In this document: piece after piece, positions 18,977-34,921 of the stretch
Numbering within the stretch: the stretch's first letter is position 1
Layout of the letters: each line of letters starts with the position of its first letter
Source of the DNA: Thermoplasmata archaeon
GTDB taxonomy: Archaea; Thermoplasmatota; Thermoplasmata; RBG-16-68-12; JAGMCJ01
Direction of reading: 5' to 3'
NCBI GenBank assembly: GCA_023136265.1
Contig: JAGLRN010000034.1
Coordinates: forward strand, 761-64,760
Length of the DNA stretch: 64,000 bases
Made by a program: the position numbers and the translations under genes
Notes under the pieces: generated by a model
Seen by the model: only the letters and a program-made list of their open reading frames with translations
What the model was told of the DNA's origin: nothing
Database searches by the model: none

Positions 18977-19150
18977 TGAATTTCCGGTGATATAAAAAGA
19001 ATGCGGTCGCCCGGAGCGTGCCTGTTAGGGAGACAGAGCAAAGACCCCATCTCCCATTCACGTGCCCATGGGAGTCAAGCACGTGGAGATCGGGGGAAGC
19101 GCGGTGACGGTCCTGAACGCCGATTTGGAGATTCCCGCGTGGGGACTGTC

Positions 19151-20161
19151 TCAGAACCACTGGTCGAGGCTCTTTTGCCTCATCAACGACCTGCCCTCTC
19201 CCATCTTGCGGAGGGCCTTTCTCACCCGCTCCTCGGAGAAGTCGAACCCGTCCCTGAGATACGCGACCGTCCCGTCCTCGTCCGGCTCCGACCGCTCCAG
19301 GGAGTAGTCCACAGAGACGAGCGGCTCGAGGAAGATATCCCTTACGCGTTGCACGTTCTCAACATCGAACCCCTCCTTCTCGCACACGGTCTCGATGTCC
19401 CCGTGCTTCTTGATCATCTGAAGGGCCCTCTTCGGGCCGATGCCTCGGACGCCCTCGTTGAAATCCGTCCCCACGAGCATCGCCATGTCCACGAGCTGCT
19501 CCCTCGTGACCTCGAGCGCCTCCAAAGCGGAGTCGAGCAGGACAAGCTCGGGTATGGCGGGACCGCCCCCCCGACCCCTTCTACGCCCAGATATGGTGAG
19601 ATTGCGAACCAGTCTGTCTGCGCCGAAGAGGAGCGAGTCAAAGTCCTGGGAGGCCGCCGCCCAGACATCCCTCTTCCTCGTCATGTTGCTCGCCTGGGCC
19701 TCACCCTCACCGGGTGCCTGGATGCACGGGATTCCGAGGAGGCTCAGGAGCTCCTTGGACTGATCCACCATCTCCTTGTTCAATCGGGAGGATTGAGAGG
19801 CCTTTATCCTGGCCTTTTCCAGGTCCCCCGCCGCAAGGGCCTTCTTCCACTCCTTCTCAGCCTCTCTCCTGACGGCACTTCTTGCGGCAATCGTCTCCGA
19901 CTTCAGCTTGGGTGGTTCACCGTCGAAAACGTACACCGGCTTGATGCCCATCTGCAGCAGATTGGCGTTCCTGTACATGAGCCCTGAAAGATGGGACGTC
20001 GTTCTTCCCTTGGAGTCCCTCAAAGGAGTGCCGTCCGGTTGGCGGATTATCGCGAGGAACTGGTATATGGCATTGAAGGCGTCGATGGCGATAGTCCTGC
20101 CCTTGAGCTCCTCCAGTTTGATCTGCTTCGCCGGGACGATGTCCGCTATGTCGACTCCCAT
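19151..20161 (-). CDS. fen: flap endonuclease 1
   Basis: MGVDIADIV...IAIDAFNAIYQFL...KPVYVFDGEPPKLK: XPG N and I domains plus a C-terminal PIP-like region (QKSLDQWF). Confidence 0.9.
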   Translation of the reverse strand: MGVDIADIVPAKQIKLEELKGRTIAIDAFNAIYQFLAIIRQPDGTPLRDSKGRTTSHLSGLMYRNANLLQMGIKPVYVFDGEPPKLKSETIAARSAVRREAEKEWKKALAAGDLEKARIKASQSSRLNKEMVDQSKELLSLLGIPCIQAPGEGEAQASNMTRKRDVWAAASQDFDSLLFGADRLVRNLTISGRRRGRGGGPAIPELVLLDSALEALEVTREQLVDMAMLVGTDFNEGVRGIGPKRALQMIKKHGDIETVCEKEGFDVENVQRVRDIFLEPLVSVDYSLERSEPDEDGTVAYLRDGFDFSEERVRKALRKMGEGRSLMRQKSLDQWF

Positions 20162-20199
20162 CGCTTCCGAATAGGTCGACCGCCTAAAAACACCTAGGG

Positions 20200-20424
20200 T
20201 TAATCCCTCAGCAGAGTCTCTATCCGGCCCAGCTGCTTAGTGTTCTTCGTGGCCAGGTCTCTGTGGATCTTGTGTATCTTGAGCATCTCCTTGGAAAGAC
20301 TGTTCTGGGCCTTCAGGTTGTCCTTGAGGAACCCGATCTCCCTCTCCATCGCTCTCTGATTCTCGACGAGTTGGAGAATCATCTCGCTTAATTCCTTCAG
20401 TTCCAAATCCTTCTTCGAGTGCAT
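20200..20424 (-). CDS. small coiled-coil hypothetical protein
   Basis: 74 aa, charged, helical. Has its own upstream TATA-like element (TTTTTATC ~35 nt upstream). Confidence 0.4.
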   Translation of the reverse strand: MHSKKDLELKELSEMILQLVENQRAMEREIGFLKDNLKAQNSLSKEMLKIHKIHRDLATKNTKQLGRIETLLRD

Positions 20425-20472
20425 CTCATCACCCGCCAGGAAATGGTCTTCGCAGATAAAAACCTTGTCGGT

Positions 20473-20931
20473 TCAGGTTATGGCGTCCACGATGTTCTCG
20501 AGCTCCCTCTCGCAGTAGACGCATCTCAGCCGGACCGGGTTCTTGGAGACGACGGTGAACTCCGTCTCCACGGGCTCCTTGAGATTCGTGATGCAGTTCG
20601 GGTTCCCGCATTTCAGGATACCCTTCGCGACCTCGGGGAGCTCCACCTTGTACTTCTGCTTCACGTTGAAGTTCTGGATGATGTTGATCGTCGCACTAGG
20701 TGCAACAAGGGCAATCTTGTCGACCTCCTTTTCCAGGAGCTCTCTGTCCTCCACCTTGACGATGTCCTTGAGCGTGCTCTTCTTGCTCGTCACGCGCATC
20801 GCCACACTGACGGTCGAGTCGGAGCTCTCATCCGTTATCCCGAGTATCTTGAGGACCTTGAGCGCCATTCCGGCGGGAATGTGGTCGATCACGGTGCCGT
20901 TCTTGATGGGCGTGACCCTCAGCTCCCTCAT
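20473..20931 (-). CDS. pyrI: aspartate carbamoyltransferase regulatory subunit
   Basis: [27 protein letters not shown] and a C-terminal Zn site (CGNPNCITN...CVYCE). Confidence 0.9.
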
Positions 20932-21863
20932 TCGACCGCCCCCAGTATGAGCGCGAGAAGCGCCATCCTCACAGGAACGCCGTTGAACGCCTGCTCGAAG
21001 TACTTGGCGTGGTGCGTGCCGTCGACCGAGGGGTGTATCTCATTGACCCTCGGCAGAGGATGCATCACGATCATATCCTTCTTCGCCTCCTCGAGCAGTC
21101 CAAGGTCCACCTCGTACAGACCGGCCACTCTCTGGTATTCCTGCGGGTCAGGGAACCTCTCCTTCTGGATCCGCGTAACGTAGAGGACGTCGACCTTTCC
21201 GATCACGTCCTTCAGATCGCTCGTCAGCTTGGGCCGGACCCTGCCCACCTTCGCATCATCCACCACTTCCTTGGGCATCTGTAGGGTCGGCGGTGCGACG
21301 AAGTACAGCTTCGCCCCGAAGAGGGAGAGCGCGTAGGAGAGCGAGTGCGCCGTCCTTCCGTACTTGAGGTCGCCGACCAGAGCGACCTTCTGCCCCTCTA
21401 TCTTGCCCTTCTCAGTCCATATCGTGAACAGGTCAAGCATCGTCTGCGTCGGGTGCTGGCCGGCACCGTCCCCGCCGTTTATGATGGGCTTCGCGGAGAA
21501 TTTCGCAGCGAGCCTGGCGGCTCCCATGTGGTGGTGTCTCAGGACAGTCACATCCGCGTAGGACTCGGCCATCTTTATCGTGTCCGCTAGGGTCTCGCCC
21601 TTCTTCAGAGAGCTAACCTCCGGGTCTGCCATGCCGATGGCCCTGCCACCCAGCCTGCTCATGGCGCTCTCAAAAGAGAGGCGGGTCCGAGTGCTTGGTT
21701 CGAAGAAGATTGTGGCGAGGACCTTGCCCCTCAGGGACTCGTTCCTCTTCTTGCCCTTTGCCGCGGGGACCATCTTCTTCGCGACCTTCAGTATGTGCAT
21801 GGTTTCCTGCTTGGAAAAGTCCTTGATGGATAGTATGTCCCTGCCCTTGAACTGCATGCTCAT
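20928..21863 (-). CDS. pyrB: aspartate carbamoyltransferase catalytic subunit
   Basis: STRTRLSFE carbamoyl-phosphate binding motif, HPLP and TLDLF-like motifs. 4-nt overlap with pyrI. Confidence 0.9.
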
Positions 21864-21911
21864 CCTTGTTCAGAATGAATCGATGAATAATAAAGCTACC
21901 GAGGGTTGAGA

Positions 21912-22103
21912 TCACTTCTTCCCGAGAAAAGCGTAGGTCATCCACTCCTTCTTGTCCTTCATGCTCAACCACGCTCTTGTCAGATCGGGGACCTGCTTCG
22001 CTCTCTCCACGGCCAGGGATGCTATCGTCCTGGCCGCTATCGCGTCCACGTCCACTCCTAGGACGCTCTTGAGCAGGTATTTAACCCTTTCCCTCTTGTC
22101 CAT
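21912..22103 (-). CDS. hypothetical small protein
   Basis: 63 aa ORF preceded by an A/T-rich TATA-like element (TTTTTTTAAATA ~20-35 nt upstream). No recognisable domain. Confidence 0.3.
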   Translation of the reverse strand: MDKRERVKYLLKSVLGVDVDAIAARTIASLAVERAKQVPDLTRAWLSMKDKKEWMTYAFLGKK

Positions 22104-22255
22104 TCCAATAATAATATGCCCCGTTCAGGTATTTAAAAAAAGGGGGAAGGCCCAGGTCCTTTCGGGCCCGGTCCTTGTGGAGGAGGGGGTGAGCGCAAAT
22201 AAAGGGGTAGGCAATTCCGGTTTCCCAGAACTGCCCGTGGGTTGTGGAGGAGGGG

Positions 22256-22603
22256 TTATCTTGATAGGACGTCGACGGCTTTCCAGTCGCCTCCGAAGTC
22301 CTTGGTGACGCCTGAGGCCAGCTGGAACCTGACTCGAAGCCTACCATTCTCGAAGAATATGTAGGCGTTCTTGAGTTGGGAAAGATAGAGGCTGATCCGC
22401 TTTCCTCTCTGCGTGAGGGCCCTTTCTACACACGTTATCAGTCCGGCTCTCTCCAGCATGTGGATTCTTCGGTATGTCGCAGCGATCGGTATCCCGTACT
22501 CCCTGCTGAGTTCAATCGCGCTCTTGGGTTTCTTGAACGTAGCAACAAGGATCCTTGCTGCGTATTCGTCGGTAATCAGTCGTGATGCTTCCAAAGGATC
22601 CAT
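22256..22603 (-). CDS. small winged-HTH (ArsR/TrmB-like) regulator, paralog 1 of a four-member family in this window
   Basis: 115 aa. HTH core ELSREYGIPIAATYRRIHMLERAGLITCVE. Conserved C-terminal beta segment LKNAYIFFENGRLRVRFQL. ~70% identical to the 30662..31006 product. Confidence 0.6.
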   Translation of the reverse strand: MDPLEASRLITDEYAARILVATFKKPKSAIELSREYGIPIAATYRRIHMLERAGLITCVERALTQRGKRISLYLSQLKNAYIFFENGRLRVRFQLASGVTKDFGGDWKAVDVLSR

Positions 22604-22696
22604 CTTCTTTCCTCCTGACCTCTATATTCCAATCCTTCGCGACCATATATATAACGCAACGGGACGAGTATCATGGCTGATTCTCAAATGTAATAA

Positions 22697-23266
22697 TCAA
22701 TCGCCTATGACATCCGCGTTCCTCTCCAGAAGGGCCAGTTCCTTCGGTTCAAAAGCCCGCGGGTCTATCGAGACGAGGAACAGAGCCTTCTTCTGCATCA
22801 CGATCTCGTTCACGTACTCTATGAACTTCAAGACCCTCGGGAAGTCGTTGTTAATCATCAGGTACTCGAGCCCATCGAGGAGAATGGCTGCCTTGCTCCC
22901 CTTGTCCATGAAGCTGCCTATGAGGTTCGTGAGGCTCCCGAGGTTGTGGGGATCGACATAGTCCCTGCCGAGCGTGGTGGAGAGCCAGATCACCTTCATC
23001 CCGTCCCGCCCGCGCTTCCTAGGTATGTGATCTGGATGCCTCCTTGTGATGTAAAGGCCCGCGTAGCCATCATCCATCAGCTCGGTGAGGTACTCGAGGG
23101 CCCTCTCGTGCCTCTTCTCACGGAGGAAGTAGGAGTGCCCCTCTTTGAGAACATCCTTCCCTCTGCCCAGAAACAGGTCTCGGAAGAGCTCGTCCGTCGT
23201 GTTGTCTATGCTCAACATTAGTAGGGGCAGCATTCCCAACCAATCCTCGTTTGGATTACCTCTCAC
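22697..23266 (-). CDS. DUF835-like protein (degenerate RecA/KaiC-fold, no P-loop)
   Basis: 189 aa. ...DGYAGLYITRRHPDHI occupies the place of a Walker A; ...AAILLDGLEYL...ALFLVSIDP layout. Upstream of wHTH paralog 1 on the same strand. Confidence 0.5.
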   Translation of the reverse strand: MRGNPNEDWLGMLPLLMLSIDNTTDELFRDLFLGRGKDVLKEGHSYFLREKRHERALEYLTELMDDGYAGLYITRRHPDHIPRKRGRDGMKVIWLSTTLGRDYVDPHNLGSLTNLIGSFMDKGSKAAILLDGLEYLMINNDFPRVLKFIEYVNEIVMQKKALFLVSIDPRAFEPKELALLERNADVIGD

Positions 23267-23377
23267 AGGTTCTTATACATTCTGCAATCAATATCAGGAA
23301 TGATACTCTGGTCACATCCTGGACCTGGGCCGTGAGCATGCGAAAACGCTAAATCAAAGCCGACTGATACATCCTCA

Positions 23378-24715
23378 ATGATGCTCACCGCCTTGGAGAA
23401 GCCGACGGGCACCTTGAGGATCCTCGCGTACGTCTATCAGAACGATCGCGGAACGATCTCGGATTTCTACAGGAAGATCGGGATAAACCAGGAATCCGCC
23501 TATTCCTCTCTCAGGAATCTCCTGCAGCTCGGCCTAATCTACGAGAAGGAGGAGGGCAAGTTCCCCTTCAGGAAGTTTTACTTGCTCACAACCACGGGGG
23601 ACCAGATCGCGAAGAAGCTGTCGTCCATAGAGGAAACGCTGAACGACACCGTATATGGCTACTATCGCAAGCTCGAGGAGCTGGAGACAGCGCCCGAGGC
23701 CCCGGAGAACCTCGCTGCCCGGCTCGAGATGATGCTCAAGATACAGGATGTCTGCTTCGCGACCGGTGAGTGGGATTCCTGCATGGAGTACTGCGGGAGG
23801 TCACTGGACCTAGCTCGGAGATTGGACGACAAGCCCGCCCAGCTCAAGGTCTTCAGGGACACCGGATGGATTCACGAGAGGAGAAGTGACTGGGACGAGG
23901 CCAGGAAGAACTTCGAGAGCGCTCTTGAAATGGCGAAGGAGACGGGCGATATGTCCGCCAAGGCTAGCATATTCTATGACCTGGGAGCCATCCACGAGAG
24001 GAATGGGGAGTACCGCCGAGCATTGGAGTTCTTCGACAAGTCGAGGCAAGCCTCCCATGACGCCAAGAATGACTGGAATCTGGCAAGAGCTCTGTACGCC
24101 TTCGGGCGGGTGGAGGCCCAGAGGGGTAACTACAAGAAGTCCATCGGGTACATGGAGAAGTCCATCGGGATGCTCGAGGAGATCGGGGACCTGAGCGAGC
24201 TTGCCAAGGTCTGCACCGGAATGGGGGCCACATGGTTCTATCTGGACGACATGGACAAGACCATCGAGTGTCACGAGAAGTGCATACGGACTGCCGAGAA
24301 GCTGGGGGATGCGACGGGAATCGGATACGGTCTGTCCAACGCGGCCGAAGCCTACGCGCTGAAAGGCGACACGAAGACGGCGCTCATATACCTCGAGAGG
24401 GCGCTCCGTATCTTCGAGAAGCTCAACGAGAGGATGATGATATCCTCCGTGTACTCCCACTACGGTCAGACCCACCGACTCAGAAAGGAATGGAAGAAGT
24501 CGGAGGAGTACTTCGGCAAGAGCATTGCCATCCTGGAAGAGCTCAACCTGCCGTACAACATGGCCGATGCCCACCACAAGTTCGGTGTCATGTACAAGGA
24601 GAAGGGTGAGCGGGACAACGCCCTTGATCACCTCTCCACGGCGTACGAGATATTCGAGAAGATTGGAAGCAAGAGCATGATGGAGAAGGTCGCCGATCTG
24701 CGAAAGGACCTCTAG
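23378..24715 (+). CDS. winged-HTH + TPR-repeat protein (putative regulator/scaffold)
   Basis: 445 aa. N-terminal ~90 aa is wHTH-like (ISDFYRKIGINQESAYSSLRNLLQLGLI). Then at least 6 TPR-like repeats (e.g. ASIFYDLGAIHERNGEYRRALEFFDKS, ARALYAFGRVEAQRGNYKKSIGYMEKS). Confidence 0.6.
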   Translation: MMLTALEKPTGTLRILAYVYQNDRGTISDFYRKIGINQESAYSSLRNLLQLGLIYEKEEGKFPFRKFYLLTTTGDQIAKKLSSIEETLNDTVYGYYRKLEELETAPEAPENLAARLEMMLKIQDVCFATGEWDSCMEYCGRSLDLARRLDDKPAQLKVFRDTGWIHERRSDWDEARKNFESALEMAKETGDMSAKASIFYDLGAIHERNGEYRRALEFFDKSRQASHDAKNDWNLARALYAFGRVEAQRGNYKKSIGYMEKSIGMLEEIGDLSELAKVCTGMGATWFYLDDMDKTIECHEKCIRTAEKLGDATGIGYGLSNAAEAYALKGDTKTALIYLERALRIFEKLNERMMISSVYSHYGQTHRLRKEWKKSEEYFGKSIAILEELNLPYNMADAHHKFGVMYKEKGERDNALDHLSTAYEIFEKIGSKSMMEKVADLRKDL

Positions 24716-25195
24716 CTAGACCAGCTCCGCCTGGAGCCAGGCCTGGGGCCAATCCTGGAAGTCCAGCGGCACTATGGTCTGCCCGTACTGAGGCCAATCT
24801 TGATCGCTCAGCTCGATGATGAGATCGTCCCAGTCCTGAGGCCAGTCCTGATGGAGGACGAGAACATAGTCGTCATCTCCCTGCCACGCGTCATGGACCA
24901 AGGGCATCAGAACCTCCAATTCTTGCGATGCCTTTCGCAGCAGGCCTTTAGCGGCCCTGGTTCCGTCTGGCAACTCAAAGACGGGGATGTGTATGACATT
25001 CGGATCCGACGTCGATAAACCGATAGTGACGTAGTCCTCGTGAACTTCCTGGACCACTATCCCGGCGTTTCCGTTCTCGAAGTGGCCAACGGGGGCAGCC
25101 GTCCAGATCCCGCCGGAAGCCGTGGGCTGAAACGCTAGAACAAGCGATAGGATAACGAAAGCAGTTGCTAGCTCCCTCTTCCTTGCCCACATCAT
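24716..25195 (-). CDS. small secreted protein with four QDWPQ-type repeats
   Basis: 159 aa. Signal peptide MMWARKRELATAFVILSLVLAFQPTASG. C-terminal repeats ...HQDWPQDWDD...DQDWPQYGQ...FQDWPQAWLQ. Confidence 0.45.
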   Translation of the reverse strand: MMWARKRELATAFVILSLVLAFQPTASGGIWTAAPVGHFENGNAGIVVQEVHEDYVTIGLSTSDPNVIHIPVFELPDGTRAAKGLLRKASQELEVLMPLVHDAWQGDDDYVLVLHQDWPQDWDDLIIELSDQDWPQYGQTIVPLDFQDWPQAWLQAELV

Positions 25196-25798
25196 CTCTT
25201 TCTATGTTTGAGGCGGTATTTATAAATATCGAGGCATGGACATGAGTTCCCCTGCTCTGACGCACCATCCTGCTTGTCAGAGTGGCCCAACTTCGGTCGC
25301 GCGAGAGGATCACAAGGGGGACTGGACACATGTCGTATCCTACCGTTTTCCTTCCCTGCTAATATTCCGTATACTGAAAAACGATAACCTTTTATAATGG
25401 GCGCCAGATTCATGGATGTTGCGGCTTCACGGGAGGTTTAGGTCTTCAGGAAGAAGTCGCAAGATATGAGAGGGGTCCAGTTGATACCTCGCACGATGAG
25501 AACACGGCCAATAAGCTTGCAATCCTCGGGAGAGTCGGTGACGACTCCTTCGATCGCTCCCGCGAAAACACCCGCTTTTTTGGACGCAGAGGGTCGAAGA
25601 CCCTACCAATTTGGTGGGAGTGGATCGGATTTGGGCGCCTTTACCCTCCAATCTGTGTGTTTGATCCCCGCCCTGACTGGTGATTGCATCCCCAGGATGG
25701 CCGACTAGATCTCACCCAAACTGGACCCCTCAGTTCTTTGTTTCCTTCGGGACGTGTCTAGCAAACGTTTATTTCTCGCGAGAGTTTAACCTCGCACG

Positions 25799-26521
25799 AT
25801 GACGGCCCGTCTGGGGATTATCACGGGTTCTGAGATGGAGATTTCCCGGATACTCGAAGGGACTAGGGAGGAAAGGGTCGGCACGCCCTTTGGCGATCCA
25901 TCTTCAGCCGTTCAGATGGGTCTGATCGAGGGGAAGGAGGTCGTTTTTCTATACCGACACGGAGAAGGGCACAGGCATCCCCCGCATAAAGTGAACCATC
26001 GTGCGAACATACAGGCCCTCTCGGACGCGGGCGTCACGAGGGTCATCGGGGCTTCTTCAGTCGGCAGCCTGAGGCAGGACATTCGACCCATGGATTTCGT
26101 CATCCCTTCGGACTTCGTGAGCTTTTGGAACATACCCACATTCCACGACGAGGAAGTCGTTCACGTCACTCCCGTTCTCGATCCAGAGCTCAGGAGGGAT
26201 CTCGTCACGTGCATAGGGGATTTGGGCTACACCGTCCATGACGGCGGCGTCTACGTCCAAACGACGGGGCCCAGGCTCGAGACGAAGGCGGAAGTCAACA
26301 TCTTCAAGGAGTTGGGAGACCTGGTGGGCATGACGATGGCGTCCGAGGCCACCCTGGCGGTAGAGAAGGGAATCGCCTACGCGAGCATATGCTGCGTTGA
26401 CAACTACTGCCATGGTTTGGCGGACGAGGTTTTCTCCTACGACGTTATCCTTGGGAATCAGAGGAGAAACGCCGAGAGGTTGTTCAACATCATCACGAGG
26501 GTCATTGAGGTGCTTGCTTGA
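25799..26521 (+). CDS. mtnP: 5'-methylthioadenosine / purine nucleoside phosphorylase (PNP/MTAP family)
   Basis: HGEGHRHPPHKVNHRANIQAL is the MTAP-type phosphate-binding motif. 240 aa. 4-nt overlap with the next gene. Confidence 0.8.
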   Translation: MTARLGIITGSEMEISRILEGTREERVGTPFGDPSSAVQMGLIEGKEVVFLYRHGEGHRHPPHKVNHRANIQALSDAGVTRVIGASSVGSLRQDIRPMDFVIPSDFVSFWNIPTFHDEEVVHVTPVLDPELRRDLVTCIGDLGYTVHDGGVYVQTTGPRLETKAEVNIFKELGDLVGMTMASEATLAVEKGIAYASICCVDNYCHGLADEVFSYDVILGNQRRNAERLFNIITRVIEVLA

Positions 26522-27774
26522 GCATTCTCATCAAGGACGCCCTTCTCGATGGCGAGTGCAGGAACATACGCGTGGAAGGAAACAGAATCGCCTCCATCGA
26601 TTCGAAGGAGGGTGCGGACACGGTAGTCGACGGGAAGGGAAAGGCCGCCATCCCCGGGCTGGTGAACACCCACACGCACGCGGCCATGAGCCTTTTTCGC
26701 GGATACGCCGATGACATGCTCCTCCAGGACTGGCTGAACAACAGAATCTGGCCCCTCGAACGGAACCTGAAACCTGAGCACATATACTGGGGAACCAAGC
26801 TCGCATGCCTTGAGATGATTAAGTCTGGCACGACGTGCTTCAATGACATGTACTTCTTCATGCAGGAGACCGCCAGGGCCGCTGAGGAGATGGGCATCAG
26901 GGCCGTCCTGAGCGAAGGGTTCACGGACCTGTTGAATCCCGACGTGGGAAAGGAGAAGTTCCAAAGCTCCATCTCCCTCGTTGAATCGATCCGGTCGATG
27001 AAGAACGATAGGATTGTCCCCGCCCTTGGACCTCACGCGATATACACGGTGTCTCCTGAGAGCCTTCAGATGATCTCTGAATACGCGGAGAAGGAGGACC
27101 TTCTGGTCCACTTTCACCTGTCCGAGACGGAGGATGAGGTGAGCGCGTGTGTCGAGAGGCATGGCAAGAGGCCAGTTGAATTCCTTGAGGAAATCGGATT
27201 CCTGAACCCCCGTCTGGTTGCCGCCCACTGCATCTGGCTGAACAAGAAGGAGATCGAGCTCCTCAGGAAGCACGATGTCAAGGTGTCCCACAATCCCGTT
27301 TCGAACATGAAGCTCGCGGTTGGGAAAGCCATACCATACAGGGAGATGAAGGAAGCGGGGCTTCTCCTCTCTCTGGGGACCGACGGCTGCGCGTCGAACA
27401 ACACGCTGGACATGCTCGAGACGGTGAAGTTCGCGGCGCTCTATCAGAAGGCGTACACGGGCGACCCGACAGTCCTCCCCGCCGAAGAGGCGGTTGCCCT
27501 GGCGACGGAGAACGGTGCCAGAGCGCTTGGCATCGACGCAGGGGAGATAGCTCCTGGAAAGCTGGCGGACATCGTCCTGATTGACTTGAGGGCGCCACAG
27601 CTCCATCCTGGCCACAACCTGGTGTCGGACCTGGCGTACGCTGCGAACGGATCGTGTGTTGACACGGTGATCTGCGATGGGAAGATACTGATGCAGGACA
27701 GGAAGGTCGAGGGAGAGGATGAGATACTCGAAAGGGCCAGCGAGGCGGCTCTGGACCTGGTTGGGAATGAATAG
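26518..27774 (+). CDS. mtaD: amidohydrolase, 5-methylthioadenosine/S-adenosylhomocysteine deaminase-like
   Basis: Metal-binding HTHAAM near the N-terminus, HLSE and the DGCASNN motif of the MtaD/guanine-deaminase subfamily. Confidence 0.8.
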   Translation: MSILIKDALLDGECRNIRVEGNRIASIDSKEGADTVVDGKGKAAIPGLVNTHTHAAMSLFRGYADDMLLQDWLNNRIWPLERNLKPEHIYWGTKLACLEMIKSGTTCFNDMYFFMQETARAAEEMGIRAVLSEGFTDLLNPDVGKEKFQSSISLVESIRSMKNDRIVPALGPHAIYTVSPESLQMISEYAEKEDLLVHFHLSETEDEVSACVERHGKRPVEFLEEIGFLNPRLVAAHCIWLNKKEIELLRKHDVKVSHNPVSNMKLAVGKAIPYREMKEAGLLLSLGTDGCASNNTLDMLETVKFAALYQKAYTGDPTVLPAEEAVALATENGARALGIDAGEIAPGKLADIVLIDLRAPQLHPGHNLVSDLAYAANGSCVDTVICDGKILMQDRKVEGEDEILERASEAALDLVGNE

Positions 27775-27785
27775 GAAGAGATCGC

Positions 27786-28346
27786 ATGCTGGAGAAGCTG
27801 AAGAAATCCATGGACGAGTGCCCGGTCGTGAAGTTCGGTGACTACGAGTACTTCGTACACCCCATTACGGATGGCATTCCGCTCGGGGACCCTGAGGTCC
27901 TGGAAGAGGTGACGGAGGCCATAATCAGCGTGGCGGACCTCGACTGCGACAAGATAATCACTGCGGAATCGATGGGTTTCCCCTTGGCAGCATCGCTCTC
28001 TCTGGCCACGGGCATCCCCTACGTCTTCATCAGGAAGAGGGAATATGGGCTCCCAGGTGAGACTTCAGTGAAGCAGCTCACTGGATACTCGGGCTCGGAC
28101 ATGTTCATCAACTCCATTGACGAAGGAGACAGGGTCGTCTTCGTCGACGACGTCCTGAGCACGGGCGGGACCATAAGGGCGATATTCCAGGCGTTGAGAA
28201 CTCTCAAGGCGGTTCTGGTCGACGTTGTGATTGTGTTCAACAAGAACCCGAACAAGGAGAAACTGGAGAAGGAACTGGGTACGAGAATCCAAACACTTCT
28301 CGACGTTCGTGTTGTGGACGGAAAGGTCGTGTGTACTCAGGGCTAA
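27786..28346 (+). CDS. type I phosphoribosyltransferase, hypoxanthine/guanine PRTase-like (purine salvage)
   Basis: PRPP-binding motif VVFVDDVLSTGGT. 186 aa, the archaeal HGPRT size. Lies in an operon with the MTAP and MtaD genes. Confidence 0.6.
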   Translation: MLEKLKKSMDECPVVKFGDYEYFVHPITDGIPLGDPEVLEEVTEAIISVADLDCDKIITAESMGFPLAASLSLATGIPYVFIRKREYGLPGETSVKQLTGYSGSDMFINSIDEGDRVVFVDDVLSTGGTIRAIFQALRTLKAVLVDVVIVFNKNPNKEKLEKELGTRIQTLLDVRVVDGKVVCTQG

Positions 28347-28396
28347 GATTCCCCCCTGGAAATGCCTTTCTGTGCATTTGCCAGTTCGCGCTGAGC

Positions 28397-28436
28397 TTAT
28401 CAGTTGTGATAATCAGTGCGAAATCCACTTAATAGT
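28397..28436 (+). promoter_or_regulatory. perfect inverted repeat TTATCA-N4-TGATAA followed by TATA-like ACTTAATAGT upstream of the DUF835-like/KaiC-like operon
   Basis: The inverted repeat occupies 28397-28412 and the TATA-like box 28427-28436. The likely start ATG is at 28470. Confidence 0.3.
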
Positions 28437-28469
28437 GGGGCTCAATTCTTTTCACTAGGCTGGGTCCTA

Positions 28470-29165
28470 ATGGTATACGAAACTGAAGTAATCGCCATGA
28501 GGGACGTGATATCCCAAATGATGAAGACCTCGCAGAATAGGCTCTTAGTGAACACTGACAGGGTCTACTTGGCGAAAACCAACCTCATCACGCTCAAGTC
28601 CCTTCTCGAGGAGGTGGGGCCCAGAGGGATCTTCTTGTCTATCAACCGACCCTACCACTACATGGCCCATCTGCTGAGGATCCACAAGGTCGACTACGAA
28701 GAGATGCTCTTCATCGACGCCATCTCCAAGATATCGGGGGAGAGGAAGATGGAGTGGAAGCAGACCACGTTCTTGGACAGCCCATTCCAGATTCCCAAGA
28801 TATTCGAGGACCTGCAGCTGATTGGTAAGACCTTGGACGGCTCCACAGCCATCATCAAGATCATCGAGGGCGACTTCGTTATGATAGACGACATCTCGGC
28901 GATCTTCCACTATAACGAGCTGGGAACCGGAAAGCGCTTCCTGAAGGAGTTCCTCGATGCTGTCGCCTCCAACCCGAAGTCATTCACTGCGTTCGCGATT
29001 GACCGGGAGACCCAGAGGGATACTTACGAGTTCCTGGCCGACCACTCCGACAGGTTGGTGGACATGGGCAACGCAGCCTTCATGGAGGTTCCCAAGGAGT
29101 TCCAGGAAGGGCACACCCCCATGCTACCGCCGTCAGAGGGCAAGAGAGGGATGGTCCATGAATGA
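28470..29165 (+). CDS. DUF835-like degenerate RecA/KaiC-fold protein (no Walker A)
   Basis: Start chosen at MVYETEV... (28470) on promoter spacing. ...PRGIFLSINRPYHYMAHLL... replaces the P-loop. 8-nt overlap with the downstream KaiC-like gene. Confidence 0.5.
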   Translation: MVYETEVIAMRDVISQMMKTSQNRLLVNTDRVYLAKTNLITLKSLLEEVGPRGIFLSINRPYHYMAHLLRIHKVDYEEMLFIDAISKISGERKMEWKQTTFLDSPFQIPKIFEDLQLIGKTLDGSTAIIKIIEGDFVMIDDISAIFHYNELGTGKRFLKEFLDAVASNPKSFTAFAIDRETQRDTYEFLADHSDRLVDMGNAAFMEVPKEFQEGHTPMLPPSEGKRGMVHE

Positions 29166-29841
29166 TGCGATCATAAGGCGGTCCAGCGGAACGCCCGGCC
29201 TGGATGAGATGATATCTGGAGGTTTCCCCTTCCCCTCGGTTCTCCTCGTTGCTGGGAGTGCCGGGACGGGAAAGACGACCTTCGCTCAGAAGTTCCTTTT
29301 CGAGGGTGCCAAGAACGGAGAGCAGTGCATATTCTTCACGACGCTCAGCGAGCCCACCCAGTGGATGTTGAGGTTCTCCTCCCAGTTCGAGTTCGTCGAT
29401 CCAGAGTACTTCGGCAGGGAGATAGTATACATCGACATAGGACACGACATAAGGGAGAGGGGCTCCCATGAGATCCTCGACGTCCTGGATGAGAAGATCG
29501 CCGAGATCATGCCACAGAGGATAGTCATCGATCCGATTACCATCGTTTGCGACTTCATAGAGGACAACTACAGGACATTCTTGTTCGATCTAGTCACTAG
29601 GCTGAAGAACTGGGATTGCGTGACGGTCCTGACGGGCGAGGTCGCTCCCGGTCAGCTTTATCCGCCGGAGATCGCCCACGCCGTGGACGGGATAGTCCTG
29701 CTCATGTACTCGCACGAAGGTGACGAGAGACGCAAGTACATCGAGGTCCTCAAGATGAGGGGAACGAACCATGTCACCGGAAAGCAGTCAATAGACATCA
29801 CAACCGAAGAGGGCATAGTCGTTCTCAAATCGAAGTTCTAG
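29158..29841 (+). CDS. KaiC-like single-domain RecA-superfamily ATPase
   Basis: Walker A AGSAGTGKTTFAQKFL. Walker B-like ...RIVIDPITI. 227 aa, the KaiC/RadA-paralog size. Confidence 0.75.
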   Translation: MNDAIIRRSSGTPGLDEMISGGFPFPSVLLVAGSAGTGKTTFAQKFLFEGAKNGEQCIFFTTLSEPTQWMLRFSSQFEFVDPEYFGREIVYIDIGHDIRERGSHEILDVLDEKIAEIMPQRIVIDPITIVCDFIEDNYRTFLFDLVTRLKNWDCVTVLTGEVAPGQLYPPEIAHAVDGIVLLMYSHEGDERRKYIEVLKMRGTNHVTGKQSIDITTEEGIVVLKSKF

Positions 29842-30008
29842 TAGGCCCGGAGAGCGGGCCAGAGCGTCATTATCGCACGTGATAATGGGAAAACAAGATG
29901 CTTATACTCTGCGCCTGCTGTTTCAAAGAGCCAACAGATAACGATGACCCCTCCTCCGAGGAAGGACGAGGCCCCATTTTCTTGGGATCTTTGCTTTCCT
30001 CACCCCCC

Positions 30009-30017
30009 TTTTTTTAT
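30009..30017 (+). terminator. oligo-T tract downstream of KaiC-like operon
   Basis: CCCCCCTTTTTTTATT lies ~170 nt after the stop at 29841. Confidence 0.25.
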
Positions 30018-30250
30018 TCGTGTAATGGGTGAGGATGGGCTAGGGAACTATTCGAGATCCTTCTTCCTCGTGTCCTTGAAAACGATGACGTTGAGGCTTA
30101 TGACCTCTTTTTCTTCGTCCTCCTCCTTTGGAAAAATCACGCTTTTGCCGTTGGGAAGGATTTTGTGGAATCTTAGCTTCATCTTATCAGTAAATCGTAG
30201 AGAGCCGGTTTATTTAAACTCAGTCTCACGGTTATCGAGAGTGATTCTCA

Positions 30251-30589
30251 TTACAGAATCTCAATCGTCTCCCAATCCTGCGTCACTGCCTGCTCATCCA
30301 GTGTGAGGACGAACCTCAGCCGGATGTCGTTGTCCTCAATGTGAATGTGCCCCTTGTTGAGATTGGCCTCGAAGAGCCTCACTACTCTTCCTCGCCGTGT
30401 GACGATTCTCTTCCTCACCGACAGAAGTCCTGCCCTCATGAGCAGGTTCAGCTTCCTGTAGCACGAGGCGATTGGAATCGAGTACTTCCCGCAGAGCTCG
30501 TACGCGGATTTCGGTGAGAGAAACGTCGCAACAAGGATGTGCTTCACATCATCATCGCGCAACAGTTTCAGCTTCTGATGGATGTTCAT
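30251..30589 (-). CDS. small winged-HTH regulator, paralog 2 (most divergent)
   Basis: Start set at MNIHQKLKLLRDDDVKHILVATF. This aligns residue for residue with the N-termini of paralogs 1 and 3. HTH YELCGKYSIPIASCYRKLNLLMRAGLL. C-terminal RLRF motif. Has its own TATA-like element (TTGATAAAAAG) in the 72-nt spacer. Confidence 0.5.
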   Translation of the reverse strand: MNIHQKLKLLRDDDVKHILVATFLSPKSAYELCGKYSIPIASCYRKLNLLMRAGLLSVRKRIVTRRGRVVRLFEANLNKGHIHIEDNDIRLRFVLTLDEQAVTQDWETIEIL

Positions 30590-30661
30590 CAGAGAACGTA
30601 TTAGTGTGACAAATAATGGCACTTTCGACCTTTTTATCAAAAGAGAGTATCAGAAGAGATA

Positions 30662-31006
30662 CTACTCCTTGGAATCGACGCCCGTCCAGTCCCCGCCGAA
30701 GTCCTTGATCACACCGGTGGTCAAGTGGAAGCGGACCCTGAGCCTTCCGCCTTCAAAGAAAACGTAAGCGTTCTTGAGCCTCGAGGTGTAGAGGTTCTTC
30801 CTCTTCCCCTTCTGCGTCAAAATGCGCTCTACGCACTCCACGAGCCCTATCTCCTCAAGGGCCCTGATCTTTCGATAGCAAGCAGCAATCGGTATCCCGT
30901 ACTTCCTGCTTATCTCTTGGGCGCTCAGTCTTCTCTTGAAAGTTGCCAAGAGGATCTTCGCCGTGTATTCATCCGTCAGCAGTTGAGAGGCTTCTAGCGG
31001 TGTCAT
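30662..31006 (-). CDS. small winged-HTH regulator, paralog 3
   Basis: 114 aa. MTPLEASQLLTDEYTAKILLATF...YGIPIAACYRKIRALEEIGLVECVE...GRLRVRFHL. ~70% identical to paralog 1. Confidence 0.6.
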   Translation of the reverse strand: MTPLEASQLLTDEYTAKILLATFKRRLSAQEISRKYGIPIAACYRKIRALEEIGLVECVERILTQKGKRKNLYTSRLKNAYVFFEGGRLRVRFHLTTGVIKDFGGDWTGVDSKE

Positions 31007-31134
31007 TCTAAACCCTCCCTGATACCCCCATGACGAGAAGTTCTCAGGTTATGGTTGTAGTTCGTATCACTTTCTGTATTTAAAGGCTTCCCTTAAGCTA
31101 TCAGCAAGGAGAACACAATTATCAGGATTGATAG

Positions 31135-31488
31135 CTACCTGGTTGGGATGGGGATCTTGATCCACGTGTTGTTGATGTCCTCGTCGTGGTTGAACTCAAG
31201 TCTGATTCTGAAATGCCCTTCCTGGAACATGATGCAGGCGCTCTTGAGCTGTGACTTGTAGAGCTTCATGTTCTTTCCCTTGGAGGTCGTGACGATCTTC
31301 TCGACCTCGATCAATCCAGCGTCCTCGAGGTCATGCATCTTGCGGTAGCAAGCGGCTATGGGGATATCGTACTTGTCGCTGATTTCCTGAACTGACCGCG
31401 GGTAGAAGTACGTCGCAACAAGAATCCTCTCTGCGTAGTCATTAGTCAGTAGTCTAGAGATTGCCTTCTCCCGCATTGCGATACTCAT
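31135..31488 (-). CDS. small winged-HTH regulator, paralog 4
   Basis: 117 aa. ...YAERILVATY...YDIPIAACYRKMHDLEDAGLIEVE...FRIRLEF. Directly downstream of the two-domain KaiC-like gene. Confidence 0.55.
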   Translation of the reverse strand: MSIAMREKAISRLLTNDYAERILVATYFYPRSVQEISDKYDIPIAACYRKMHDLEDAGLIEVEKIVTTSKGKNMKLYKSQLKSACIMFQEGHFRIRLEFNHDEDINNTWIKIPIPTR

Positions 31489-31557
31489 TCTCTACTTGAT
31501 TTAAGCACATTTCTATGCAATTATCAACGATGATACCCATACACCCGTTTCAGGCGG

Positions 31558-33072
31558 CTAGATTATCGGTGTGAGCATGGCCTTTGGACAGCCACTCGAG
31601 TGATCGAAGGAAATGGCATGGAGCTCGGTGTAGGGCTTCTCGCCGAAGAGAACAACGGAACCGTCTATGTTCTCGATCTTCAGATGGGTGTGGGCAAGAT
31701 TCGCGAGCGGTGCGGTGGAAGAAGTCGTTGACGTAACAATCCCTATGAAGATGTCCTTCGCCTTCCTGATCGACGACATGTGACCGGCCATATCCTCTAT
31801 CACTTGGTGACCGAAGACCGCCTCCAGGGTATCGAATCCCATCAGGGACAGGATCGGACGCTCCGCCTGCGAGAGATGATACTCGATGTTGCTCAATTTC
31901 AGCTCGTTGTCGATATCAGAACCCTCCATAGGGAGTGCTATCTTGGAATCCTCGACAGACGTTGTGGCGGACGGCTCGAACACGCGCATGCATCTCTCGA
32001 GCGCCTCCTGGCCGACAAAAGGCATGATTTCGTCCCTAACGATCTCCGAGGAGGCTTTCTTCTCGGGGACGAACGCAACTCCCCTGCCGAGTGAGATGAA
32101 ATTCGATAGGAGCGCGGTCTTGATGAGGTCGGTGTACAGCGTGTCGACATTCCCGCCTACCTCCAGAGCGACTATCGTACCCTTCTTGAATCCGCCTATC
32201 AGAGCGTCGAGTTGCTCGCTTCCCGTCGAGATCCAGTTCTCCGATATGTCCGGTATGGGTACCCAACTCGACTTCTCTTCCGGTATCTCAATCTTCTCGA
32301 AGCCGAAGGTCTTGATCCTCCCCCCGTCCAGAGTGTAGGCGCACTTGTGCTGCCTGATCTCGGTGCCGCGAAGCTTCTCGATCTTCATAATCCTCAAGCG
32401 TCTGCCCTCGTGTTCCTCGCTCGTGAACGTGATGACCCCGTCCCCAAGATAATCGAGCCGCGTCTCCCCAGGGCTCTCCAGCACATACAGGACATCGGAC
32501 GAGGAAGTCTCGACCAGGTCCTTCTGGAGTGTGTTCATTAGCTTCGAGGGGTGGATCCCGTATCTCTCCGCCAGCGCGTTGATGCTGTCTATCAGTATGA
32601 GGCTCTTCTCCGGGAGCGTGTCCTCGACCACATCATATGCCCTGTCGATCTCGGGGAGGTCCGATCCAAGGTCCAGGATGAGGCTGGTCTCCGTGACCTC
32701 GCCCTCGCTTATCTTGTCGTAAATGCTGCTCTCGTCCTCCTCGCCCATCTCTATCCTGCCCTCGAGCTTCTTGAGCTCCGTTCTGTCGACCTTGCCTTCC
32801 TCCTCCTCAGGCCTTTGGTCGAACCTTGTCGGGGCGATCCGCTTCTTGAACTCGACCCTGTCCTTGAGCCAAGGGAACTGGTTGTACAGGGAATGGTCGC
32901 TTACCCTGATCGACATGTAGTAGGAGTTCTCGACACTCCCCAGTTCCTCTGTCAGTTGCAGGGCGAACGTCGTCTTGCCCGTTCCCGCACTGCCCTTGAC
33001 TATCAGGGAATGTCCACCTGGCCCTTTGAAGAAATCCAGCAGCGCATTGGGAATACCCTTCTCTTCCTTCAT
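31558..33072 (-). CDS. two-domain KaiC-like RecA-superfamily ATPase (active N-domain, degenerate C-domain)
   Basis: 504 aa. Walker A GSAGTGKTTFALQ in domain 1, followed by a charged insert. Domain 2 (GGFKKGTIVALEVGGNVDTLYTDL) lacks a P-loop. Confidence 0.75.
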   Translation of the reverse strand: MKEEKGIPNALLDFFKGPGGHSLIVKGSAGTGKTTFALQLTEELGSVENSYYMSIRVSDHSLYNQFPWLKDRVEFKKRIAPTRFDQRPEEEEGKVDRTELKKLEGRIEMGEEDESSIYDKISEGEVTETSLILDLGSDLPEIDRAYDVVEDTLPEKSLILIDSINALAERYGIHPSKLMNTLQKDLVETSSSDVLYVLESPGETRLDYLGDGVITFTSEEHEGRRLRIMKIEKLRGTEIRQHKCAYTLDGGRIKTFGFEKIEIPEEKSSWVPIPDISENWISTGSEQLDALIGGFKKGTIVALEVGGNVDTLYTDLIKTALLSNFISLGRGVAFVPEKKASSEIVRDEIMPFVGQEALERCMRVFEPSATTSVEDSKIALPMEGSDIDNELKLSNIEYHLSQAERPILSLMGFDTLEAVFGHQVIEDMAGHMSSIRKAKDIFIGIVTSTTSSTAPLANLAHTHLKIENIDGSVVLFGEKPYTELHAISFDHSSGCPKAMLTPII

Positions 33073-33205
33073 TTGACACCCTACGTCAGTAAGGGCAACT
33101 CCCTTTTAGATGTTTTTCTCCTCGTTATCAGGAGTGAGAACGTCCGGCTGACGGAGATGATCGGTTACGGAGGCCTCTCTTGGGCACGCCGCCCGCCGAA
33201 AATGC

Positions 33206-34201
33206 TCACTTCCCGATGGCCTTGAAAGCCTCCCGCGCAACGTTCACGTCGTTCTGATGGAAGAGGAGACCCACTGCCTCGGCCTCCGTGCACCACTTGT
33301 ACTTATCGAACCTGGATTCGGGCTCTGGTTTTCCCTCGGGAGCACGCGCGAGGAAGTAGGTGACCTTCTTCCGGTAGTTGACGTCGTCCTGGGGCCAGTA
33401 ATAGGAGTACTCGACCTCACATAGCTCCCGCTCGATTTTTGTCGACCCGAGCCCCGTCTCCTCCTCCATCTCTCTCATGGCAGCGCGTTCCGGGGTCTCG
33501 CCCATCTCGATGTGACCTTTCGGAAGGCACCAGAGTTTCTCGCTCCTTTTGCGGATGAGAAGGATCCTTCCCCTCCTGTGGATGACGCCTCCAGCGGTCT
33601 TGACGGAGATATCTCTATTCCCCTTCCTGGCGGGCCTGCTGATAATCCTCACCTCCTCGGATTCTGCAAACTCCTTCGCCCTTTTCAGGTCTGACGTCAG
33701 GTGCTTCAGCAGCCGTCTGTTGTAGAGGACCGCCGCGGGGTGGTAGGTCGAGATTAGTGGCCTTCCCTCGTATTCCCTGGTTTCGAGCCGAGCCTCGGAC
33801 ACCTTCACGGACTTGCCGGCTAGGACGCTGTGCGCGAACGATCCTAGCGCCACGACTGCATAGGGGTCCACCGCATCGATGTACGCTTCCAGATGGGGTC
33901 GGCATTTCTCTATCTCGTCCTTTCTGGGGTTCCGATTCCCCGGCGGACGGCACCGAAGCACGCTCGTGATGAAAACGCCATCCCGCATCAGACCCGCCTT
34001 CTTGAGCGATTCGTTCAGGATCTTTCCCGCCGCTCCGACGAAGGGGCGACCTTGCTTGTCCTCCTCCCTTCCAGGGGCCTCCCCTACAAGGAATATGCGC
34101 GCGTTCCTGTCTCCCTCACCTGGAACCGCCCTCTCGCGTGTCTTCCACAGCCTGCACCTCCTGCATCGCCTTACCCGCCTCGCGAGTTCTTCCAGACTCA
34201 T
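33206..34201 (-). CDS. fusion protein: family-4 uracil-DNA glycosylase (4Fe-4S type) + NUDIX hydrolase
   Basis: N-terminal half has C-x2-C...GEAPG..E...G.PFVG.AG...R.DGVFITSVLRCRPPGNRNP...C and the HPAAVLY motif of UDG family 4. C-terminal half carries the NUDIX box GHIEMGETPERAAMREMEEETG. Confidence 0.75.
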   Translation of the reverse strand: MSLEELARRVRRCRRCRLWKTRERAVPGEGDRNARIFLVGEAPGREEDKQGRPFVGAAGKILNESLKKAGLMRDGVFITSVLRCRPPGNRNPRKDEIEKCRPHLEAYIDAVDPYAVVALGSFAHSVLAGKSVKVSEARLETREYEGRPLISTYHPAAVLYNRRLLKHLTSDLKRAKEFAESEEVRIISRPARKGNRDISVKTAGGVIHRRGRILLIRKRSEKLWCLPKGHIEMGETPERAAMREMEEETGLGSTKIERELCEVEYSYYWPQDDVNYRKKVTYFLARAPEGKPEPESRFDKYKWCTEAEAVGLLFHQNDVNVAREAFKAIGK

Positions 34202-34210
34202 CCCAGGCCT

Positions 34211-34675: not shown

Positions 34676-34676
34676 T

Positions 34677-34880
34677 CTATCTTTCTACCAGGAACGAGAC
34701 CTTCACATTCGCCCTGAACTCAACGATTTCGTCGTCCCTTACTTTGGCGGAGAACTTGACCACATCGATGCCGCTGATGCCTCTCGTGGTCTTCTTCGCA
34801 TCGCTGAAGGCGTTGAGGATAGCGTCCTCGAAGCTCTTGTTTGAGCAGCCAACAAGCTCGACTACTTTTGCAGTTGTCAT
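34677..34880 (-). CDS. dodecin-family flavin-binding protein
   Basis: 67 aa. VVELVGCSNKSFEDA...ISGIDVVKFSAKVRDDEIVEFRANVKVSF matches the dodecin beta-alpha-beta-beta pattern. Confidence 0.65.
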   Translation of the reverse strand: MTTAKVVELVGCSNKSFEDAILNAFSDAKKTTRGISGIDVVKFSAKVRDDEIVEFRANVKVSFLVER

Positions 34881-34921
34881 TTAACCTCCCCAGTTCAGAA
34901 TCGCGTCGTGGTATAAGGTTC

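Follow-up and report, generated by a model that had tools for sequence, protein, structure and literature searches.

DUF835 is listed as 'iKaiC', an inactivated KaiC-like output domain of archaeal response regulators and signalling proteins, and Thermoplasmata is one lineage for which REC-DUF835 proteins are listed (PMC5847659); among the work cited there is the proposal of KaiC-like ATPases as hubs of archaeal signalling (Makarova, Galperin & Koonin 2017). In the GvpD/GvpE system, the upstream activating sequence (UAS) of GvpE is 20 nt long, consists of two 8-nt parts 4 nt apart, adjoins the transcription factor B recognition element (BRE) and serves the regulatory genes' own promoter, while GvpE is kept at lower amounts by GvpD, a P-loop ATPase (PMC4390858, PMC2241852). 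TrmBL1/Tgr bind TATCAC-N5-GTGATA and activate with the site upstream of BRE/TATA (PMC4158304). Here we describe a stretch of 64,000 nucleotides (the window) from contig JAGLRN010000034.1 of an uncultured Thermoplasmata archaeon, whose best relatives at the DNA level are Thermoplasmata metagenome-assembled genomes (MAGs), and in it a DUF835 gene followed by a gene for a small winged helix-turn-helix (wHTH) protein, wHTH1. The gene pair itself is ordinary, and its DUF835 label is correct already in the public MAG annotation; the locus as a whole, judged from its sequence, adds a new, well-delimited member to the signalling systems of KaiC-like/iKaiC and wHTH proteins that have been predicted for archaea.

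We propose, with slightly better than even confidence, that DUF835 and wHTH1 are separate genes of one wHTH-controlled KaiC/iKaiC regulon resembling GvpD/GvpE. By their promoter sequences the two genes appear to be tied by a shared operator and not by an operon. The operator is a 20-bp 8-N4-8 palindrome with the core TATCA-N4-TGATA, which is statistically enriched and positionally conserved before DUF835, the wHTH paralogs and KaiC-family genes. When the window was scanned with the single seed GAGAATCA-N4-TGATACTC (at most 3 mismatches), 8 matches were found at 5 sites against 0.72 expected, and 0 of 100 shuffles reached 8 matches. The core alone (at most 1 mismatch) has 10 sites against 0.77 expected, a number that again none of the 100 shuffles reached, and 7 of these 10 lie in promoters of KaiC-family or wHTH genes (Table 1); a position weight matrix (PWM) returned 11 distinct sites against approximately 1.3 matches per shuffle. 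The operator ends 3-14 nt upstream of a recognisable TATA-like box before wHTH1, DUF835, wHTH3, wHTH4 and u249 (the gene preceding an active KaiC-like ATPase), and generally lies about 50-70 nt before the start codon, with the wHTH2 site more distal. An earlier note on this DNA had pictured a RecA-fold plus wHTH regulatory system in several copies in this region, which agrees with the same palindrome standing before DUF835, four wHTH genes, the KaiC operon and a GvpD-like gene.

The same arrangement recurs in related genomes. One genome per GTDB species was scanned, yielding 62 loci with relatives of the DUF835 protein, and the window proteins together with some locus-derived proteins were mapped onto them; the comparison stays within a single class. 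Across 521 kb of related loci, 113 PWM matches were found, none of them inside a recognised gene, in a count that is partly circular because the matrix was trained on promoter sites. DUF835 (48 of the 113) and wHTH1 (35) account for most of them, followed by wHTH5, a divergent 103-106-aa family member (8), wHTH2 (5), wHTH3 (2) and KaiC genes (2); two matches assigned to MTAP are DUF835 sites in short spacers, one assigned to the TPR-wHTH gene is likewise a DUF835 site, and the 10 elsewhere lie mostly before a 44-aa gene. Independent evidence comes from the single-seed and core-pattern scans and from site classes that did not serve as seed (wHTH5, KaiC, GvpD-like and the distant lineage L072). 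The single-seed scan of the related loci gave 52 matches, all in the same promoter regions. A site occupies the equivalent position upstream of most MTAP-linked DUF835 orthologues; in a soil-derived clade it drifts to (G/A)AGTYTCA-N4-CGATAGTC with its position kept. In L072 the gene for a wHTH member (64% identity) neighbours another wHTH gene and a GvpD-like gene in divergent orientation; the promoter of the GvpD-like gene carries two near-perfect palindromes, AATTATCACGAATGATAATT and GATAATCATCGATGATAAGC.

The interval from 22256 to 23266 contains two minus-strand open reading frames (ORFs) 93 bp apart. The upstream one is taken as the DUF835 gene with the limits given in Table 1, because its homologues all begin at the position of the internal ATG 23233 (MLPLLML...); this ATG, giving 178 aa, is probably the true start, and GTG 23266 probably is not. 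On the coding strand the 93-bp spacer reads TGA-...TTGAGAATCAGCCATGATACTC-GTCCCGTTGC-GTTATATATATGG-(27 nt)-GGAGG-AAAGAAG-ATG, that is, the palindrome, a canonical archaeal TATA box 10 nt on, and then a Shine-Dalgarno (SD) sequence. The order 'TTGAGAATCA...GATAMTC', TATA box, GGAGG recurs before wHTH1 orthologues, and these elements are kept alike behind DUF835, behind wHTH5 and behind a thioredoxin gene or unrelated small ORF, with the operator approximately 62-66 nt before the ATG in every context, loci without DUF835 included. The conservation of operator, TATA box and SD whatever gene precedes wHTH1 is indirect but good evidence that transcription of this gene begins at a regulated promoter of its own. 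The DUF835 operator lies within the intergenic region common to the divergent TPR-wHTH gene, and the top inverted repeat returned by a general repeat finder consists of the wHTH1 and DUF835 operators, one on either side of the DUF835 gene. DUF835 and wHTH1 are probably not one operon and have separate predicted promoters.

The assignment of the upstream protein to DUF835, made in the earlier note from the letters alone, was borne out by a hidden Markov model (HMM) scan against Pfam PF05763, with 123.7 bits (curated gathering threshold 33.1 bits), E 5.9e-36, over profile positions 3-134 of 136. A search of a 5.8-billion-protein collection returned 254 relatives, the closest of which (97-77% identity, about 178 aa) come from Thermoplasmata/Thermoplasmatota MAGs and are named 'DUF835 domain-containing protein'. 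The family comprises 3378 clusters at 50% identity and is essentially archaeal according to the literature and the named matches seen. To our knowledge, it has no experimental function and its label is computational only. A strong HMM match, a RecA/KaiC fold and the loss of Walker A are what the protein shares with the DUF835/iKaiC family. It differs in architecture: the usual DUF835 domain is C-terminal, behind a membrane or sensor N-terminus such as a 7TM, PAS or REC sensor, whereas here the 178-aa protein stands alone with only a 26-residue low-confidence N-terminal stretch. Stand-alone forms of 150-190 aa are common among the 3378 clusters. It differs also by its orthologous group, which is tight and shows extra invariant residues, and by a promoter operator that is conserved.

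An AlphaFold2 model built with 34 homologues has a mean predicted local distance difference test score (pLDDT) of 81 and a predicted template modelling score of 0.77, with only the first 26 residues at low confidence. Because the relatives returned by a fold search with this model are RAD51 paralogs, KaiC (13.6) and the inactive RecA-fold subunits Elp4/5/6, a RecA/KaiC fold without functional P-loop is confirmed at the level of the model. Sequence identity to the single-domain archaeal KaiC-like ATPases PH0284, FlaH/ArlH and SSO2452 and to the inactive RecA-fold subunits Elp4/5/6, RAD51 paralogs and Psy3-Csm2 is 6-15%, and PH0284, FlaH and SSO2452 keep the Walker A that DUF835 does not. The protein contains no GxxxxGK[ST] motif and has 'FLREKRHERA' after β1, so that the P-loop-less RecA-fold module recognised earlier stands. 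The exact placement has to be corrected. The model runs through β1 (33-38), a short loop, α1 (43-54) and β2 (58-63); in an alignment over 148 columns between a profile of 191 DUF835 domains and a small KaiC alignment, KaiC GSAGTGKT falls opposite 'RE----KR' (a 4-residue deletion), the KaiC β2 'CIFFTTLSEP' opposite 'GLYITRRHP' and the KaiC Walker B 'RIVIDPIT' opposite 'AILLDGLEY'. GLYITRRHPDHI, which had been put at the Walker A position, is therefore off by one β-α unit, as GLYITRRHP aligns with KaiC β2. This alignment is statistically weak alone (E 0.003, probability 11%) and is consistent with the model topology. With a shallow profile no DUF835-KaiC link was obtained, whether by hhalign against a single KaiC sequence, by PDB sequence search or by global hhalign; a usable alignment came only from the fold search and the deeper profile.

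In this reading, the DUF835 protein has lost its P-loop, and the catalytic-glutamate loop after β2, (S/T)xEE in active KaiC/RecA ATPases, is replaced by an invariant TRxHPxH. The Walker-B-like 'LLDG' aspartate is kept. Walker A, and catalytic glutamate(s) together with a Walker B aspartate, mark an active KaiC/RecA ATPase, and the protein has neither. The orthologous group has 33 invariant positions, including WLSTTLG, Y.DPHNL, DG.E, NN..R and D157. In terms of RecA-fold topology, the conserved residues WLSTTLG, DPHNL, DGxEYL and NN..R would form a crest at the C-terminal ends of the β-strands. In active RecA-fold relatives the nucleotide site and the subunit interface lie at this edge of the sheet. 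As the invariant residues would map there, the crest suggests an interface or a ligand pocket and not a decaying gene.

The second gene of the pair encodes a protein that falls slightly short of the Pfam thresholds for HTH_20 (25.2 vs 27) and further short of that for TrmB (16.4 vs 25.6), and it also matches the IclR and HTH_24 models weakly; wHTH paralog 2 is above the HTH_20 threshold (30.0). Its structure model (pLDDT 91) comprises four helices at the N-terminus, among them the recognition helix, as well as a β-wing and three more β-strands. The model shows wHTH1 to be a winged-helix protein of TrmB/ArsR-like type. It has three paralogs in the window, which are 69% (30662-31006), 45% (31135-31488) and 38% (30251-30640) identical to it. 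Over all paralog types the recognition helix, IPIAACYR(R/K)I..LE, is the most conserved segment. Position 43 in it is Cys (IPIAACYRRI) in at least 90% of the family and Thr in the window's wHTH1 (IPIAATYRRI; codon 22475-22477).

We consider the wHTH paralogs the candidate palindrome binders because a site precedes every paralog, the recognition helix is shared, the wHTH is TrmB-like and the half-sites are identical to those of TrmBL1/Tgr. The likeness to the TrmB family and the Thermococcales glycolytic motif comprises TATCA/TGATA half-sites before BRE/TATA, the weak TrmB Pfam matches, and autoregulation, which is known there and would be paralleled by the window's wHTH genes carrying the site. 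The TATCA-TGATA pentamers are 4 nt apart here and 7 nt apart there; moreover, the protein has 115 aa and, unlike TrmB proteins, no sugar-binding effector domain, and the prospective targets are KaiC-family and wHTH genes instead of sugar metabolism. The TPR-wHTH protein was considered as an operator binder and dropped, since most genomes with the site lack its gene.

A further element lies directly 3' of the wHTH1 stop, on the minus strand at 22160..22257: an invariant 18-mer rich in C, CCCCTCCTCCACAACCCA, and after it a hairpin and a run of T. In 17 of 71 loci, distant ones included, the wHTH1 stop is followed at 2-13 nt by the 13-mer CCCTCCTCCACAA, while the hairpin sequence varies and shows a double change at just one stem pair. 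In the window this 13-mer has 4 copies (at most 1 mismatch) against 0.12 expected, and 22160-22257 comprises two tandem units. The CCCCTCCTCCACAACCCA element, which resembles an anti-Shine-Dalgarno sequence and has no Rfam match, could be a regulatory element of the 3'-untranslated region, or a small RNA derived from this region together with a terminator.

The window also offers a counterpart of GvpD. A 504-aa, two-domain KaiC-family ATPase encoded 8 kb away, adjoining small transcription-factor genes, matches GvpD_P-loop (60.5 bits, E 2.5e-16) and GvpD_bR2 (44 bits, E 2.4e-11) and is aligned to KaiC by hhalign; its N-terminal Walker A is intact (GSAGTGKT) and only the C-terminal half is degenerate. 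The earlier note had counted this protein as the first P-loop-less case in the window, which does not hold. The combination of a P-loop domain and basic region 2 that characterises GvpD is thus found in the 504-aa protein and not in DUF835, which lacks the P-loop that GvpD needs to function. The operator shares the format of the GvpE UAS and its position relative to BRE/TATA, and in both systems the regulatory genes carry the site, with binding predicted only in the present case; the operator sequence differs, and wHTH proteins would take the part that the leucine-zipper-like GvpE plays there. In those parts of the window that were looked at, no gas-vesicle genes came to notice, and no whole-window scan was aimed at them.

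Directly upstream of the active KaiC-like ATPase (a single domain with Walker A GSAGTGKT; Pfam KaiC, E 5e-43), the gene for the 249-aa protein u249 (28416-29165) overlaps the KaiC start by 8 nt. u249 has no Pfam or NCBIfam match and one weak hhalign match to the deep DUF835 profile (E 1e-3, 155 columns). Its segments 'GIFLSINRPYHY' and 'FVMIDDISAIF' look like those of DUF835 at β2 and Walker B. Possibly u249 is another inactivated KaiC-like protein, strongly diverged and with its translation coupled to that of KaiC.

Gene order separates the proposed regulon from its main rivals. The gene directly downstream of DUF835 is an ArcS-like gene (approximately 595 aa) in 38 of the 62 loci, a convergent DUF835 paralog followed by an HTH-STAND-TPR protein in 9, wHTH1 in 6 (the six closest relatives, with the window's arrangement) and wHTH5 in 6. 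The earlier note's DUF835 gene directly upstream of wHTH1 on the same strand therefore holds for the closest relatives, while overall a wHTH gene follows DUF835 in 12 of the 62 loci, and the synteny gives way to the ArcS-like gene or the convergent paralog in most of the rest. In the loci with wHTH5, wHTH1 and pyrBI come next in five of six; the sixth, L007, has neither. Orthologues of wHTH1 (81-88% identity) also exist without an upstream DUF835 gene; two metagenomic contig groups (81-83%) have a thioredoxin gene and a small ORF in its place. Whether DUF835 is present or absent, pyrB-pyrI is found downstream in every wHTH1 locus with enough sequence, directly, past a 63-74-aa ORF (the usual case) or once past two extra genes. 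As wHTH1 keeps pyrBI without DUF835 and DUF835 mostly keeps MTAP, the adjacency is the junction of two blocks, Hpt<-deaminase<-MTAP / DUF835-> and wHTH1->(small ORF)->pyrB->pyrI, each steadier than the junction itself. Control of pyrBI by wHTH1 through the same operator was considered and dropped, there being no site between 21864 and 22256; the constant wHTH1-pyrBI linkage is not explained by the operator, which is found neither before small63 nor before pyrB.

A dedicated two-gene operon, in which DUF835 would act as sensor or adaptor for its own transcription factor as one of several RecA-fold plus wHTH cassettes, is in our judgement unlikely. The same strand, the 93-bp distance and the persistence of the arrangement in six close relatives would suit it, as would the second clade, in which wHTH5 takes the place after DUF835 (in L007 without wHTH1 or pyrBI), and the GvpD-like gene that likewise precedes wHTH3 and wHTH2 in several genomes: this order recurs in L009 and partly in L024, L028 and L057, where the GvpD-like gene lies beyond the locus ends. 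What such an operon does not account for is the rarity of the adjacency, the existence of wHTH1 without DUF835 but always with pyrBI next, and the conserved operator, TATA box and SD in the spacer, which predict an independent transcript. In addition, wHTH1 evolves far more slowly, being 87-89% identical in genomes where DUF835 is 52-58% and PyrB 68-70% identical. The conserved pair or repeated module envisaged in the earlier note is thus weakly supported: the six closest relatives keep the adjacency, and a second clade keeps it only with wHTH5 in between; wHTH1 itself occurs without DUF835 and has its own promoter in the spacer.

The commonest neighbour of DUF835 is not a wHTH gene but the divergent MTAP-deaminase-Hpt operon. 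MTAP is its immediate divergent neighbour in 37 of the 62 loci and lies within a few kb in eight more, counted from gene maps, a linkage kept at 45-56% protein identity. DUF835 might accordingly work mainly with this operon, for example as a metabolite-binding regulator or partner, with the wHTH1 adjacency incidental, and the invariant polar crest (TRxHPxH, STT, DPHN, DGxE, NN) suggests a ligand pocket for such a role. We regard this as improbable, as the distance from the operator is roughly constant to DUF835 and variable to MTAP (69-164 nt and more), the window lineage has two genes inserted between MTAP and DUF835, and DUF835 has no DNA-binding domain. The Hpt of the operon is an archaeal hypoxanthine/guanine phosphoribosyltransferase, and the gene set fits a route from methylthioadenosine (MTA) or 5'-deoxyadenosine through an inosine analogue and hypoxanthine to inosine monophosphate.

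That there is no functional link at all, with the gene order merely inherited and the palindrome serving an unrelated global regulator or being generic to promoters, is quite improbable: some synteny is expected when one class of genomes is compared and the motif has no direct assignment to the wHTH family, but the genes that carry it are few and form a coherent group of KaiC-family and wHTH genes, and it stands before every wHTH paralog in every genome examined, the signature of autoregulation, and is absent from the neighbouring housekeeping promoters of MTAP, pyrB and small63.

For the wHTH-controlled regulon, we propose that the wHTH paralogs would bind the TATCA-N4-TGATA operator as dimers, autoregulate, and control, more likely activate, the KaiC-family genes including DUF835. 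For their part, the KaiC-like and GvpD-like ATPases would govern how active or how stable the wHTH factors are, in the way GvpD acts on GvpE, and DUF835 would be a non-catalytic partner or sensor subunit feeding back on these ATPases. The DUF835-wHTH1 adjacency would then be the junction of two regulon members and not a dedicated operon. An operator before BRE/TATA favours activation, by analogy with TrmBL1/Tgr and GvpE. Several points weigh against this regulon, apart from the circularity of the PWM count. Position alone cannot separate activation from repression, and some sites abut the BRE; some factor other than the wHTH paralogs could bind the palindrome. The soil-clade site (TCTCA-N4-CGATA) is less symmetric, and paralog-B DUF835 genes, those with the convergent DUF835b, lack a site. 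No DUF835-wHTH fusion occurs among the 10 multidomain DUF835 proteins examined, in which the partners are 7TM, Ras/Roc, Zn-ribbon and HGTP_anticodon-like domains.

A more far-reaching version, which is conceivable and which we put forward tentatively with rather low confidence, is a self-contained Thermoplasmata switch, both post-translational and transcriptional, analogous to GvpD/GvpE and unrelated to gas vesicles, in which autoregulated TrmB-like wHTH proteins would bind the TATCA-N4-TGATA sites beside BRE/TATA, KaiC-like and GvpD-like ATPases would control these proteins, and the ATPase-dead DUF835 protein would tune the ATPases, possibly by sensing a by-product of S-adenosylmethionine/MTA or purine salvage. 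The sensing of a salvage by-product is suggested by the conserved divergent link to the MTAP-deaminase-Hpt operon. If true, such a switch would be a concrete, testable case of the proposed 'KaiC hub', and DUF835 would have a function for the first time. The locus is a compact conserved circuit with a short gene list, an exact operator, a defined promoter geometry and candidate binders, and it makes the idea of KaiC-like ATPases as archaeal signalling hubs testable.

Table 1. Genes, promoter elements and operator sites of the locus, in window positions (core sites are given by their first position; a strand is entered where one was assigned).
Feature	Position	Strand	Remarks
small63, pyrB, pyrI	20473..22103	-	constant downstream neighbours of wHTH1
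wHTH1	22256..22603	-	115 aa; predicted ArsR/TrmB-like winged-helix protein, C-terminal β-sheet extension
wHTH1 TATA box	22643..22655	-	GTTATATATATGG, from sequence; SD GGAGG 22611-22615
wHTH1 operator	22666..22685	.	GAGAATCA-GCCA-TGATACTC; 12 nt past DUF835 stop; core site 22669
DUF835 gene	22697..23233	-	178 aa; stand-alone, predicted inactivated KaiC/RecA-fold protein; ORF list extends to GTG 23266
DUF835 TATA-like box	23269..23280	-	ATGTATAAGAAC; 8 nt downstream of operator, about 40 nt before ATG 23233
DUF835 operator	23289..23308	.	GAGTATCA-TTCC-TGATATTG; perfect core TATCA-N4-TGATA, core site 23292
TPR-wHTH gene	23378..24715	+	445 aa; N-terminal wHTH and TPR repeats; divergent to DUF835
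MTAP-like phosphorylase, MTA/adenosine-type deaminase (amidohydrolase), archaeal Hpt	25799..28346	+	operon; NCBIfam matches
u249-KaiC operator	28395..28414		perfect core, core site 28398
u249 and active KaiC-like ATPase	28416..29841	+	likely starts 28467 (u249) and 29158 (KaiC)
Core site	29871		convergent KaiC/wHTH4 spacer
44-aa small gene	30048..30182	-	MKLRFHKILPNGKSV...; MKLRFHKILPNGKSVIFPKEEDEEKEV...; too short for default ORF list
Operator of 44-aa gene	30230-30249		precedes TATA box and gene; found by the fuller (single-seed, PWM) scans
wHTH paralogs 4, 2, 3	30251..31488	-	in tandem, downstream of 504-aa GvpD-like gene
wHTH4 operator	30645-30664		promoter; core site 30648
wHTH2 operator	31117-31136		upstream of gene; perfect core, core site 31120
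wHTH3 operator	31519-31538		promoter; perfect core, core site 31522
GvpD-like KaiC-family ATPase	31558..33072	-	504 aa, two domains: P-loop N-domain, degenerate C-domain
GvpD-like core operator	33126-33139		promoter; core site 33126
Core site	36940		upstream of 66-aa ORF and PolX
Core site	54019		location in window only

Some DUF835 loci hold a second paralog of the same size (L009-L013, L022, L023, L034, L055 and L056). Downstream of this paralog come a convergent DUF835-like gene (160-172 aa) and a wHTH-STAND-ATPase-TPR protein of approximately 900 aa. DUF835 genes thus repeatedly adjoin wHTH-TPR proteins, including the divergent one in the window. The latter (Pfam TPR_12, E 3e-43; weak TrmB/HxlR matches at the N-terminus) is limited by synteny to the closest relatives, L001-L006. 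It forms the insertion between MTAP and DUF835 together with a 159-aa minus-strand ORF (24716-25195), which has a signal-like hydrophobic N-terminal segment and QDWPQ-type repeats, no Pfam match, and relatives found only in the closest genomes. An Rfam scan found no known RNA in 19000-38000.

A good operator copy outside the KaiC/wHTH cluster, 36937-36956 (GAGAATCAGTCATGATAGGC), lies upstream of a 66-aa ORF (36745-36945, minus strand), which has no detectable homologue in the fetched loci, and of PolX (34922-36655, minus strand), and adjoins a PhoU_div (DUF47) gene. Within the cluster, the 44-aa ORF has its own operator and TATA box (TTTAAATA) and is kept at 38-65% identity in eight other loci, where it likewise follows the wHTH cluster. 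It is probably a genuine small gene that belongs to this regulon.

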